Below are positions 32,978-38,175 of a stretch of DNA of 64,000 nucleotides, one piece after another. Source of the stretch: Escherichia coli. Its GTDB lineage: Bacteria; Pseudomonadota; Gammaproteobacteria; Enterobacterales; Enterobacteriaceae. The notes beneath the pieces were generated by a model that saw only the letters and a list, made by a program, of their open reading frames with translations, was not told the origin of the DNA and made no database searches. Positions within the stretch are counted from its first letter, which is position 1; every line of letters starts with the position of its first letter. The stretch lies in assembly GCF_009931435.1 (NCBI RefSeq), contig NZ_CP043414.1. One strand, 5' to 3'. Position numbers and translations under genes: made by a program.

Positions 32978-35113
32978 TTGCTTAATCCGATCGTTCGTAA
33001 ATTCCAGTACGGCCAACACACCGTGACTCTGGAAACCGGCATGATGGCTCGTCAGGCTACTGCCGCTGTTATGGTTAGCATGGATGACACCGCGGTATTC
33101 GTTACCGTTGTTGGTCAGAAAAAAGCCAAACCAGGTCAGGACTTCTTCCCGCTGACCGTTAACTATCAGGAGCGTACCTACGCTGCTGGTCGTATCCCAG
33201 GTAGCTTCTTCCGTCGTGAAGGCCGCCCAAGCGAAGGCGAAACCTTGATTGCGCGTCTGATTGACCGCCCGATTCGCCCGCTGTTCCCGGAAGGCTTCGT
33301 CAACGAAGTTCAGGTTATCGCCACCGTGGTTTCTGTTAACCCGCAGGTTAACCCGGATATCGTTGCGATGATTGGTGCTTCCGCAGCACTTTCTCTGTCT
33401 GGTATTCCGTTCAATGGTCCGATTGGTGCTGCCCGCGTAGGTTACATCAATGACCAGTACGTACTGAACCCGACTCAGGACGAACTGAAAGAGAGCAAAC
33501 TGGATCTGGTTGTTGCCGGTACAGAAGCTGCCGTGCTGATGGTTGAATCTGAAGCTGAACTGCTGAGCGAAGACCAAATGCTGGGCGCAGTGGTGTTCGG
33601 TCATGAACAACAGCAGGTTGTTATTCAGAACATCAATGAACTGGTGAAAGAAGCCGGTAAACCGCGTTGGGATTGGCAGCCGGAGCCGGTAAACGAAGCG
33701 CTGAACGCGCGCGTTGCTGCGCTGGCTGAAGCTCGTCTGAGCGATGCTTATCGCATCACCGACAAACAAGAGCGTTATGCGCAGGTTGATGTCATCAAAT
33801 CTGAAACCATCGCGACGCTGCTTGCTGAAGATGAAACCCTGGACGAAAACGAACTGGGTGAAATTCTGCACGCTATCGAGAAAAATGTTGTTCGTAGCCG
33901 CGTACTGGCAGGCGAACCGCGTATCGACGGTCGTGAAAAAGATATGATCCGTGGTCTGGATGTGCGTACTGGCGTGCTGCCGCGTACTCACGGTTCTGCG
34001 TTGTTCACCCGTGGTGAAACGCAGGCACTGGTTACCGCAACGCTGGGTACTGCACGTGACGCACAGGTTCTTGATGAACTGATGGGCGAACGTACTGACA
34101 CCTTCCTGTTCCACTACAACTTCCCTCCGTATTCCGTAGGTGAAACTGGCATGGTCGGTTCTCCGAAGCGTCGTGAAATTGGTCACGGTCGTCTGGCGAA
34201 GCGCGGCGTGCTGGCAGTAATGCCGGATATGGACAAATTCCCGTACACCGTACGTGTAGTGTCTGAAATTACCGAATCCAACGGTTCTTCTTCTATGGCT
34301 TCCGTGTGCGGTGCGTCTCTGGCGCTGATGGACGCAGGTGTGCCAATCAAAGCTGCTGTTGCGGGTATCGCAATGGGGCTGGTGAAAGAAGGCGACAACT
34401 ACGTTGTACTGTCTGACATTTTGGGCGACGAAGATCACCTGGGCGATATGGACTTCAAAGTTGCGGGTTCCCGCGACGGTATCTCTGCACTGCAGATGGA
34501 TATCAAAATTGAAGGTATCACCAAAGAGATCATGCAGGTTGCGCTGAATCAAGCTAAAGGTGCGCGTCTGCATATCCTGGGCGTCATGGAGCAGGCGATC
34601 AACGCGCCGCGTGGTGATATCTCTGAGTTTGCACCGCGTATCCATACCATCAAGATCAATCCGGACAAGATCAAAGACGTTATCGGTAAAGGCGGTTCTG
34701 TTATCCGTGCCCTGACCGAAGAAACTGGCACCACCATCGAAATCGAAGATGACGGTACTGTGAAGATCGCAGCGACCGACGGCGAGAAAGCGAAAAACGC
34801 TATTCGTCGTATCGAAGAAATCACCGCAGAAATCGAAGTGGGCCGCGTCTACAATGGTAAAGTGACCCGTATCGTTGACTTTGGCGCGTTTGTTGCCATC
34901 GGCGGCGGTAAAGAAGGTCTGGTCCACATCTCTCAAATCGCCGACAAGCGTGTTGAGAAAGTGACCGACTACCTGCAGATGGGTCAGGAAGTTCCGGTGA
35001 AAGTTCTGGAAGTTGATCGCCAGGGCCGTATCCGTCTGAGCATTAAAGAAGCGACTGAGCAGTCTCAACCTGCTGCAGCACCGGAAGCTCCGGCTGCAGA
35101 ACAGGGCGAGTAA
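32978..35113 (+). CDS. pnp: polynucleotide phosphorylase
   Basis: TTG start at 32978 giving (M)[20 protein letters not shown]; 711 aa with RNase PH, KH and S1 domains; the 740 aa ORF-track call is over-extended upstream. Confidence 0.93.
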
Positions 35114-35123
35114 GGTTGCCATT

Positions 35124-35152
35124 TGCCCTCCGCTGCGGCGGGGGGCTTTTAA
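35124..35152 (+). terminator. probable terminator after pnp
   Basis: GCCCTCCGCTGCGGCGGGGGGCTTTT imperfect hairpin plus short T run. Confidence 0.6.
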
Positions 35153-35221
35153 CCGGGCAGGACGCCTTGTTAGCAACCGGGAACAGGACGTTCATTCAAC
35201 CGTGGTCTTCGGGAGTGGGAA

Positions 35222-36106
35222 ATGAAGCCTTTTTTGCGCTGGTGTTTCGTTGCGACAGCACTTACGCTTGCAGGATGCAGTAATACTTCCTGGCGTAAAA
35301 GTGAAGTCCTCGCGGTACCATTGCAACCGACTTTACAGCAGGAAGTGATTCTGGCACGTATGGAACAAATCCTTGCCAGTCGGGCTTTAACCGATGACGA
35401 ACGCGCACAGCTTTTATATGAGCGCGGAGTGTTGTATGATAGTCTCGGTCTGAGGGCATTAGCGCGTAACGATTTTTCGCAAGCGCTGGCAATCCGACCG
35501 GATATGCCGGAAGTATTCAATTACTTAGGCATATATTTAACGCAGGCAGGCAATTTTGATGCTGCCTATGAAGCGTTTGATTCTGTACTTGAGCTTGATC
35601 CAACTTACAACTACGCGCACTTGAATCGCGGGATCGCATTATATTACGGCGGTCGTGACAAGTTAGCGCAAGATGATCTGCTGGCGTTTTATCAAGACGA
35701 TCCCAATGATCCTTTCCGTAGTCTGTGGCTTTATCTCGCCGAGCAGAAGCTCGATGAGAAGCAGGCTAAAGAAGTGTTAAAACAGCACTTCGAAAAATCG
35801 GATAAGGAACAGTGGGGATGGAACATTGTCGAGTTCTACCTGGGCAACATTAGCGAACAAACGTTAATGGAAAGGCTCAAGGCGGACGCAACGGATAACA
35901 CCTCGCTCGCTGAGCATCTCAGTGAAACCAACTTCTATTTAGGTAAGTACTACCTAAGTCTGGGGGATTTGGACAGCGCCACGGCACTGTTCAAACTGGC
36001 GGTTGCCAACAACGTTCATAACTTTGTTGAGCACCGATACGCATTGTTGGAATTATCGCTCCTGGGCCAGGACCAAGATGACCTGGCAGAATCGGACCAG
36101 CAATAG
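35222..36106 (+). CDS. nlpI: TPR-repeat lipoprotein NlpI
   Basis: 294 aa; lipobox LTLAGCSN. Confidence 0.96.
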
Positions 36107-36212
36107 CTGACGTACACATCAGCCCGTAATCTTTTTTGATTGCCATCACCTTAACGGGTGAGGGCGTTGTTGTTCGTTAATACACCTACTTTGAGCCGGT
36201 TCACACTTTTCA

Positions 36213-36293
36213 ATGAAAATTGCTGATCAATTTCATGATGAGTTATGTAGACTGGCCGCCATTAATTTTGAGGCACACGTACTACATGGCTGA
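36213..36293 (+). CDS. yrbN: small protein YrbN (26 aa) overlapping the deaD start
   Basis: [26 protein letters not shown]; position and length match my recollection of the annotated E. coli small protein upstream of deaD; no obvious SD. Confidence 0.5.
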
Positions 36294-38175
36294 ATTCGAA
36301 ACCACTTTTGCAGATCTGGGCCTGAAGGCTCCTATCCTTGAAGCCCTTAACGATCTGGGTTACGAAAAACCATCTCCAATTCAGGCAGAGTGTATTCCAC
36401 ATCTGCTGAATGGCCGCGACGTTCTGGGTATGGCCCAGACGGGGAGCGGAAAAACGGCAGCATTCTCTTTACCTCTGCTGCAAAATCTTGATCCTGAGCT
36501 GAAAGCACCACAGATTCTGGTGCTGGCACCGACCCGCGAACTGGCGGTACAGGTTGCTGAGGCAATGACGGATTTCTCTAAACACATGCGCGGCGTAAAC
36601 GTGGTTGCCCTGTACGGCGGCCAGCGTTATGACGTGCAATTACGCGCCCTGCGTCAGGGGCCGCAGATCGTTGTCGGTACTCCAGGCCGTCTGCTGGACC
36701 ACCTGAAACGTGGCACTCTGGACCTCTCTAAACTGAGCGGTCTGGTTCTGGATGAAGCTGACGAAATGCTGCGCATGGGCTTCATCGAAGACGTTGAAAC
36801 CATTATGGCGCAGATCCCGGAAGGTCATCAGACCGCTCTGTTCTCTGCAACTATGCCGGAAGCGATTCGTCGCATTACCCGCCGCTTTATGAAAGAGCCG
36901 CAGGAAGTACGCATTCAGTCCAGCGTGACTACCCGTCCTGACATCAGCCAGAGCTACTGGACTGTGTGGGGGATGCGTAAAAACGAAGCGCTGGTACGTT
37001 TCCTGGAAGCGGAAGATTTTGATGCGGCGATTATCTTCGTTCGTACTAAAAACGCGACTTTGGAAGTGGCAGAAGCTCTTGAGCGTAACGGCTACAACAG
37101 CGCTGCACTGAACGGTGACATGAACCAGGCGCTGCGTGAGCAGACTCTGGAACGCCTGAAAGATGGTCGTCTGGATATCCTGATTGCGACCGACGTTGCG
37201 GCCCGTGGCCTGGACGTTGAGCGTATCAGCCTGGTAGTTAACTACGATATCCCGATGGATTCCGAGTCTTACGTTCACCGTATTGGTCGTACCGGCCGTG
37301 CGGGGCGTGCTGGTCGTGCGCTGCTGTTCGTTGAGAACCGCGAGCGTCGTCTGCTGCGCAACATTGAACGCACTATGAAGCTGACCATTCCGGAAGTAGA
37401 ACTGCCGAACGCAGAACTGCTGGGCAAACGCCGTCTGGAAAAATTCGCCGCTAAAGTACAGCAGCAGCTGGAAAGCAGCGATCTGGATCAATACCGTGCA
37501 CTGCTGAGCAAAATTCAGCCGACGGCGGAAGGTGAAGAGCTGGATCTCGAAACTCTGGCAGCCGCACTGCTGAAAATGGCACAGGGTGAACGTACTCTGA
37601 TTGTTCCGCCAGATGCGCCGATGCGCCCGAAACGTGAATTCCGCGACCGTGACGACCGTGGTCCGCGCGATCGTAACGACCGTGGCCCACGTGGCGACCG
37701 TGAAGATCGTCCGCGTCGTGAACGTCGTGATGTTGGCGATATGCAGCTGTACCGTATTGAAGTGGGCCGCGATGATGGTGTTGAAGTTCGTCATATCGTT
37801 GGCGCGATTGCTAACGAAGGTGACATCAGCAGCCGTTACATCGGTAACATCAAGCTGTTTGCTTCTCACTCCACCATCGAACTGCCGAAAGGTATGCCGG
37901 GTGAAGTGCTGCAACACTTTACGCGTACTCGCATTCTCAACAAGCCGATGAACATGCAGTTGCTGGGCGATGCACAGCCGCATACTGGTGGTGAGCGTCG
38001 TGGTGGTGGTCGTGGTTTCGGTGGCGAACGTCGTGAAGGCGGTCGTAACTTCAGCGGTGAGCGCCGTGAAGGTGGTCGTGGTGATGGTCGTCGTTTTAGC
38101 GGCGAACGTCGTGAAGGCCGCGCACCGCGTCGTGATGACTCTACTGGTCGTCGTCGTTTCGGTGGTGATGCGTAA
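36286..38175 (+). CDS. deaD: cold-shock DEAD-box RNA helicase DeaD (CsdA)
   Basis: ORF 36220..38175 trimmed to [21 protein letters not shown]; 629 aa; motifs [25 protein letters not shown]; RGG/ER-rich C-tail. Confidence 0.95.

Follow-up and report, generated by a model that had tools for sequence, protein, structure and literature searches.

yrbN at the deaD start of Escherichia coli as a candidate translated leader of the deaD mRNA

Identification of yrbN

Positions refer to the window, which is the whole stretch of 64,000 nucleotides that was analysed (Escherichia coli, NCBI RefSeq assembly GCF_009931435.1, contig NZ_CP043414.1). The genes at the locus are as follows.

35222–36106: nlpI coding sequence, which contains the deaD promoter and transcription start site (TSS)
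36213–36293, plus strand: yrbN coding sequence, 26 codons plus TGA; a RefSeq CDS on the same bases, with a match to NF033440 and with TIS and RPF reads
36286–38175, plus strand: deaD (csdA) coding sequence, 629 aa, beginning MAEFETTF; ATG at 36286–36288, its first 8 nt overlapping the end of yrbN

The yrbN ATG is at 36213–36215 and the TGA at 36291–36293, giving 26 sense codons on the plus strand (ATG AAA ATT GCT GAT CAA TTT CAT GAT GAG TTA TGT AGA CTG GCC GCC ATT AAT TTT GAG GCA CAC GTA CTA CAT GGC TGA). The overlap with deaD is 8 nt long (ATGGCTGA, 36286–36293); the two frames differ, and yrbN ends 5 nt past the deaD ATG. Sequence and open reading frame list therefore agree with the first-pass annotation, which had described a 26-codon frame opening at ATG 36213 and stopping 5 nt after the deaD ATG.

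That annotation also proposed that the frame is the annotated small gene yrbN, and this is correct. The 401 bases from 36050 to 36450 match E. coli chromosomes with 100% identity, and 5425 of 5426 complete genomes contain them. RefSeq annotates the same 81 bases, between nlpI and deaD, as yrbN (“protein YrbN”, WP_010723222.1), and the ORF is therefore already known. The peptide matches the NCBIfam equivalog family NF033440 (small_YrbN) with 76.3 bits against a cutoff of 33, over residues 1–26 of 26; no Pfam family and no domain was found in it. An identical peptide is given for yrbN of MG1655 in PMC11188072, and yrbN of E. coli K-12 (b4685, UniProt C1P618, NF033440) has the same sequence, the same position between nlpI and deaD and the same 8-nt overlap, with no difference, and is thus the same gene. 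It has been described as a 26-aa ORF in the 838-nt 5′ UTR of csdA/deaD, with an 8-nt overlap; its discovery is attributed to Hemm et al. 2008, and no function was assigned (bioRxiv 10.1101/2021.03.08.434349).

We note that there are 63 ORFs of at least 20 aa within the surrounding 4 kb, and that an ORF of the size of yrbN is on its own not beyond chance. It stands above chance because it is conserved across 78 readable Enterobacterales loci, as described below.

The deaD leader

35413–35448, plus strand: deaD promoter TTTATA-16-TATGAT with the published TSS, inside the nlpI coding sequence (promoter scan; Ojha and Jain 2020)

The main deaD TSS is 838 nt upstream of the ATG (–838, position 35448 of the window), with TATGAT as its –10 element (Ojha and Jain 2020, PMC7430678); TATGAT is found at 35435–35440, upstream of this position. 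A promoter within or beside yrbN was considered and rejected, because the published site at 35413–35440 is the sole promoter-like site in a scan of 35350–36450, and promoter activity was likewise not found downstream of the published deaD promoter (bioRxiv 10.1101/2021.03.08.434349). The same two publications bear out the earlier suggestion that yrbN lies inside a long deaD leader. Because promoter and TSS are both inside nlpI, most of the 838-nt “untranslated” leader is in fact nlpI coding sequence.

The leader mediates autoregulation of DeaD through mRNA stability and Rho-dependent termination. The determinants map to –820 to –101, and a construct containing only the last 100 nt loses Rho dependence. 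Autoregulation was accounted for at the level of mRNA with no need for translational control, a statement that concerns autoregulation and not basal coupling, and neither yrbN nor nlpI is named (PMC7430678). The last 100 nt, kept in that deletion, coincide exactly with the part of the leader in which yrbN and the conserved blocks (see below) are found.

Several further features of the leader were observed. Between the nlpI stop and yrbN, at 36142–36178, there is a hairpin with the sequence GCC.TCACCT-TAAC-GGGTGA.GGC, behind which comes a T-rich tail with interruptions; among 72 leaders its stem shows compensatory changes, from A-U to G-C in 13 and from C-G to U-A in 9. It was not called by a simple terminator scan of 35350–36450, and from its sequence it looks like either a leaky nlpI terminator or a stabilising stem of the deaD leader. 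The sequence TAGCTGACG (36104–36113), made up of the nlpI stop codon and 6 nt more, does not vary among the 72 leaders. An old 5′ end at “–173” (Toone 1991, quoted in PMC7430678) would map to 36113, directly after TAGCTGACG, which may be a processing site. The last 150 codons of nlpI (35654–36103) have a third-position diversity of 0.30, compared with 0.40 in deaD, and 33% of their third positions are nearly invariant, compared with 12% in deaD; such synonymous conservation would fit a second role of the nlpI 3′ end as deaD leader. Finally, the deaD frame is open upstream as far as a TTG at 36220, with in-frame ATG codons at 36235 and 36238. These two ATGs vanish where yrbN codon 9 is GAC, and an N-terminally extended DeaD is therefore not conserved.

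Translation of yrbN

Tagged YrbN is reported to have been detected by Hemm et al. in 2008. A re-analysis of retapamulin and Onc112 ribosome-profiling data sets (smORFer, PMC11188072) places yrbN at NC_000913.3 3307852–3307933 on the minus strand, and its Table S4 lists, for MG1655, 45 retapamulin and 12 Onc112 reads at the initiation site. The TIS fraction is 1 for each of the two, and elongating footprints number 235 and 214. Initiation at position 36213, for which the first-pass annotation had looked to such data, is therefore seen with both antibiotics. The TIS counts are modest, of a similar order to those of hisL in the same table. There is no Shine-Dalgarno (SD) sequence at yrbN, the anti-SD duplex amounting to only –3.9 kcal/mol, and the AUG itself is partly paired in the predicted folds.

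Elsewhere, yrbN is absent from the supplement of 10.1101/2021.07.02.450978. The legend of figure 2 of PMC6001520 labels a cold-induced small protein “yrbN_PAIR_0”, and the text there names YnfR beside a cold-shock gene. We rejected the idea that YrbN belongs to the commonest class of E. coli small proteins, the small membrane proteins: its sequence is charged and amphipathic, and it is listed as nonTM and nonCDD in file 2 of PMC11188072.

Conservation of the reading frame

We then compared 80 loci from different Enterobacterales species, of which 78 cover the yrbN region. They were fetched by a search with the N-terminus of DeaD, so that the sampling is independent of yrbN. Four extra metagenome loci (L082, L083, L086 and L087) proved to be E. 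coli-like or Pantoea-like and added nothing. Wherever the locus extends far enough nlpI is upstream of deaD, and the spacer is 171–187 nt long in all but two loci.

A yrbN-like ORF starting with ATG is present in every one of the 78 readable loci; the start codon and frame singled out in the first-pass annotation are thus conserved. Over codons 3–7 there are no in-frame stops in any of 29 distinct haplotypes, compared with 13 and 9 haplotypes that have stops in the other two frames. Indels within the ORF are of 3 or 6 nt, with the sole exception of Dickeya, where the indel is downstream of an early stop; single-base indels do occur just upstream of the yrbN ATG. The distance between the yrbN and deaD ATGs preserves the same frame relation in 77 of 79 loci. 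The ORF runs into the deaD start in 61 of the 78 loci, with an 8- or 11-nt overlap and a TGA stop. In the remaining 17 it stops 12–16 nt before the deaD ATG, so that the overlap is not universal: 15 of these (Pantoea, Erwinia, Mixta, Tatumella and one Rosenbergiella) stop at codon 19 with a TAA that lies 16 nt upstream of the deaD ATG, and two Dickeya loci have a TGA 12 nt before it. YrbN is consequently shortened to 18–19 aa in these six genera. Together, the lack of in-frame stops, the indel lengths of 3 or 6 nt and the site of termination argue that the frame is read and that the position at which it ends matters.

Outside this group the element is degraded or was not found. A Plesiomonas MAG (L084:1215–1331) has degenerate blocks, and its homologous frame has TTG in place of ATG and a TAA at codon 11; the yrbN ORF is therefore not kept there. 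No yrbN-like ORF or blocks were found in Pasteurella multocida, a locus of 70% DeaD identity with an nlpI-like gene upstream, or a more distant locus. As far as sampled, the yrbN element appears to be confined to the Enterobacterales.

Conservation at the RNA level

Per-column diversity was calculated from an alignment of 72 distinct leaders, and shows three conserved blocks.

36188–36220, plus strand: block A, ACTTTGAGCCGGTTCACACTTTTCAATGAAAAT; 25 non-coding nt, the yrbN ATG and the next 5 nt; diversity near 0 in the 72 leaders
36231–36260, plus strand: block B, TTTCATGATGAGTTATGTAGACTGGCCGCC; yrbN codons 7–16; common arm of two mutually exclusive predicted helices
36270–36282: block C, GAGGCAC..GTAC; nearly invariant in the 72 leaders

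Block A contains no Shine-Dalgarno sequence, and its GCCGGTT (36195–36201) can pair with block B. Within block B, the third positions of codons 10–16 (GAG TTA TGT AGA CTG GCC GCC) have a diversity below 0.1 in six of the seven codons; only 12% of deaD third positions in the same genomes are that conserved, and the longest such run there is 2. Codons 3–6 and 17–19 are hypervariable at all positions. Codons 8 and 9 show synonymous wobble (CAT/CAC and GAT/GAC), with a third-position diversity of about 0.5 compared with 0.03–0.4 at the first two positions. The C-terminal EA..(L)H(G/D) is simply the translation of the SD-like GAGGCA of deaD and of CAT GGC or CAT GAC at the deaD start. Nucleotide conservation thus exceeds what coding explains, and much of the conservation of yrbN is at the RNA level. 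Separately, the third frame of block B contains AUGUAG (36245–36250), a start followed at once by a stop, which is nearly invariant and has no SD at a useful distance.

Predicted structures of the leader RNA

Two alternative helices are predicted for this part of the leader, both of which use block B.

36241–36291, plus strand: predicted B:C hairpin, 5′ arm 36241–36257 (AGUUAUGUAGACUGGCC) with 3′ arm 36272–36291 (GGCACACGUACUACAUGGCU); takes in the deaD AUG and half of the GAGG
36270–36273, plus strand: SD-like GAGG of deaD, with a spacing of 12 nt to the ATG (9 nt in leaders of the Yersinia and Serratia type)
36195–36256, plus strand: A:B helix, GCCGGUU (36195–36201) with GACUGGC (36250–36256), predicted by RNAalifold; closes a long irregular hairpin

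The E. coli B:C hairpin has a predicted energy of –19.2 kcal/mol, with a z score of –4.3 against dinucleotide shuffles, and in 14 representative species the values range from about –15 to –21 kcal/mol and from –1.1 to –4.7. The predicted probability that the deaD AUG is unpaired is 0.00–0.16 in three further folding windows, compared with about 0.5 in shuffles, and averages 0.06 over all leaders in a fourth window (–100/+20). In a comparison of 39 genes of the neighbourhood, deaD is predicted to have the least accessible initiation region, or nearly so. Folded as a whole from a single sequence, the 191-nt segment shows no more stability than shuffles (z –0.37), and only the local hairpin stands out. 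The SD of deaD is itself weak and distant (–5.6 kcal/mol, with the duplex ending 11 nt from the AUG). The hairpin is predicted to bury the deaD AUG in every species tested, and we infer that it may also form in vivo. With the folding settings used for deaD, other buried AUGs in the E. coli neighbourhood (L090) include genes that overlap their upstream gene, namely glmM (folP-glmM) and agaD (agaC-agaD).

Of the cells in an alignment of 45 distinct hairpins, 95.6% are paired, compared with 13–47% when the 3′ partner is slid. Mismatches are seen in a few lineages (C.A in Cedecea-type leaders and G.G in Pluralibacter), and there is essentially no covariation in this alignment, which is uninformative because both arms hardly vary. 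Sequence comparison would thus neither prove nor refute the B:C hairpin. A small A-U hairpin over yrbN codons 2–8 (–1 to –8 kcal/mol) was discarded as too weak and too variable to interpret.

The A:B hairpin holds the yrbN AUG, and is predicted to exclude the B:C hairpin. Its pairs are invariant except for two changes from G-U to A-U and one from U-A to U-G, and there is no covariation within the 80 loci. Folding with one or the other helix enforced gives two ensembles whose energies are +0.3 ± 1.6 kcal/mol apart in 19 species; together they make up about 80–99% of the predicted ensemble, and their predicted balance shifts little between 37 and 15 °C. The Plesiomonas MAG keeps the A:B helix despite its broken ORF and lengthens it to 9 bp by several pair-preserving changes, and its deaD AUG is predicted to be buried by a different upstream partner. 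Taken together, the two helices look like a switch in the folding models. We treat this as a lead only, because RNA often has near-degenerate folds and the species are not independent of one another.

Function of yrbN

The best-supported reading, which in our view is somewhat probable, makes yrbN a translated ORF in the leader of the deaD mRNA, with its main job in cis: a ribosome that melts the hairpin and ends at or near the deaD AUG would couple the translation of deaD to that of yrbN, the peptide being secondary. Ribosomes would start at AUG 36213 without a Shine-Dalgarno sequence and would read codons 10–16, which are otherwise predicted to be paired with the deaD initiation region and so to bury the deaD AUG. 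Termination would follow at the UGA overlapping the AUG of deaD, or 12–16 nt ahead of that AUG in some genera. With the hairpin unwound and termination taking place beside the AUG, the same ribosome or a new one could then start on deaD, which has only a weak and distant SD of its own. The 26-aa peptide would be mostly a by-product. Translation of deaD would then depend on that of yrbN. Coupling of deaD initiation to yrbN translation through the overlap, as raised in the first-pass annotation, is plausible and fits the structural and comparative results.

The translated-leader reading explains both why the frame is kept and why its stop falls where it does, together with the weak SD of deaD, the invariance of block B as RNA and the looseness of the peptide. 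The early stops in 17 loci would be tolerated because they are in the loop of the hairpin and are reached only once the ribosome has passed block B. The invariance of block A is explained only in part. Points that weigh against this reading are the account of DeaD autoregulation by mRNA level (PMC7430678), the lack of covariation and the few mismatches in the B:C hairpin, the unremarkable stability of the 191-nt fold, the lack of an SD and the partly paired AUG at yrbN, the modest TIS counts and an overlap that is not universal. There is also room for a function of the peptide, given its conserved core and the synonymous wobble of codons 8 and 9.

A more elaborate proposal, which we put forward tentatively and regard as possible rather than probable, is that the conserved unit is a three-block leader RNA (A 36188–36220, B 36231–36260 and C 36270–36291) in which B pairs with either A or the deaD start. 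Translation of yrbN through B would flip the leader so as to expose the deaD AUG, adding a translational gate, and the peptide would be dispensable.

It is also conceivable, if on balance unlikely, that the ORF is incidental and that the conserved thing is a structured RNA, whether a bistable A:B/B:C switch or a binding or processing site, which sets the accessibility of the deaD AUG, mRNA stability or Rho access; initiation at yrbN would then be noise. The invariance of the non-coding block A and of the synonymous sites of block B is what such an element would show, as are the two exclusive helices that share block B at nearly equal energy in 19 species, the lack of an SD at yrbN, and the A:B helix that Plesiomonas keeps and lengthens even though in its frame a TTG replaces the ATG and codon 11 is a TAA. 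The leader is moreover known to mediate stability and Rho-dependent control (PMC7430678). An incidental ORF is however difficult to reconcile with 29 haplotypes free of in-frame stops when the other frames have 13 and 9 with stops, with indels restricted to 3 or 6 nt inside the ORF and of 1 nt just upstream, with an ATG in 78 of 78 loci, with a stop that is always at or just before the deaD AUG, or with TIS peaks in two independent antibiotic data sets. There is also no covariation in the 80 loci and no Rfam family, and near-degenerate alternative folds are common in random RNA, so that bistability is not itself significant.

We consider it distinctly unlikely that YrbN works in trans as a functional small protein, with DeaD, the ribosome or the degradosome as conceivable targets, and that its overlap with deaD only ensures co-expression. 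In favour of this, YrbN is translated, it belongs to an equivalog family curated by NCBI, its codons 8 and 9 wobble synonymously, and it has a conserved core (F7, D9, E10, L11, C12, R13, L14, A15 and A16). The core codons are however also invariant at synonymous sites, and conservation of the core therefore needs no peptide; a rough count over codons 7–16 gives about 7 synonymous and 11 non-synonymous events, which indicates only weak purifying selection on the amino acids. Residues 3–6 and 17–19 are hypervariable, the last 7–8 residues are dictated by the SD and start region of deaD, and 17 of the 78 species retain only 18–19 residues. The Plesiomonas MAG has a broken frame and an intact RNA helix, and the peptide has no TM segment, domain or Pfam family. 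On the translated-leader reading the peptide would be secondary, given that codons 3–6 and 17–19 are hypervariable, that the C-terminus is set by the deaD start and that truncation to 18–19 aa occurs.

The least probable of the explanations, and one to which we give very little weight, is that yrbN translation mainly shields the end of the leader from Rho and RNases, and so sets the number of transcripts that reach deaD and not the frequency of deaD initiation. Leader ORFs that gate Rho are an established class (mgtL/mgtA and corL/corA), which counts in its favour, as does the fact that most of the 838-nt leader is nlpI sequence left untranslated from the internal promoter. The leader supports both Rho-dependent termination and DeaD-dependent decay (PMC7430678), but the determinants of Rho dependence and feedback, at –820 to –101, are upstream of yrbN (–73), the construct with the last 100 nt loses Rho dependence, and an ORF of 26 codons ending at the deaD start would protect little more than deaD translation already does.

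DeaD/CsdA is a key RNA helicase of cold shock and ribosome assembly. If yrbN has to be translated for the hairpin to be unlocked, then DeaD would gain a translational control on top of mRNA stability and Rho, and YrbN would exemplify a “small protein” whose real nature is that of a leader acting in cis; the three-block gate, if true, would be a layer missing from the published model of DeaD autoregulation. The identification of yrbN is itself already known, and the hypothesis of a hairpin or switch is the only part of this work of possible specialist interest.

Comparison with known systems

To our knowledge the leader of cspA contains no translated ORF, unlike that of deaD. The cspA mRNA thermosensor (Rfam RF01766) is comparable in that both are leaders of cold-shock genes in which alternative folds could change the accessibility of the start codon. 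A thermosensor of the cspA type was nevertheless rejected, given that an Rfam scan of 35000–36600 gave no relevant match at E-values up to 10 and that the A:B/B:C balance barely moves between 37 and 15 °C. The hexamer ACGUAC in block C was rejected as a cspA cold box because it is not conserved among the leaders.

The leader peptides of attenuators (trpL, hisL, thrL and leuL) are likewise encoded by short translated leader ORFs, with alternative pairings that have a middle segment in common, as do A:B and B:C here. In yrbN, in contrast, the alternative helix would hide a start codon and not a terminator. An attenuator peptide of the trpL type was rejected, as yrbN has no run of regulatory codons and there is no terminator-like site in 35350–36450.

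Translational coupling through an occluded downstream start is established for secM-secA and for the MS2 coat gene with the replicase start. Compared with these, yrbN has no evident stalling signal, is only 26 codons long and has no SD of its own. The likeness is in the arrangement: an upstream ORF spans the arm of a hairpin, here a predicted one, that hides the downstream start, it ends at or next to the downstream AUG, and the downstream SD is weak.
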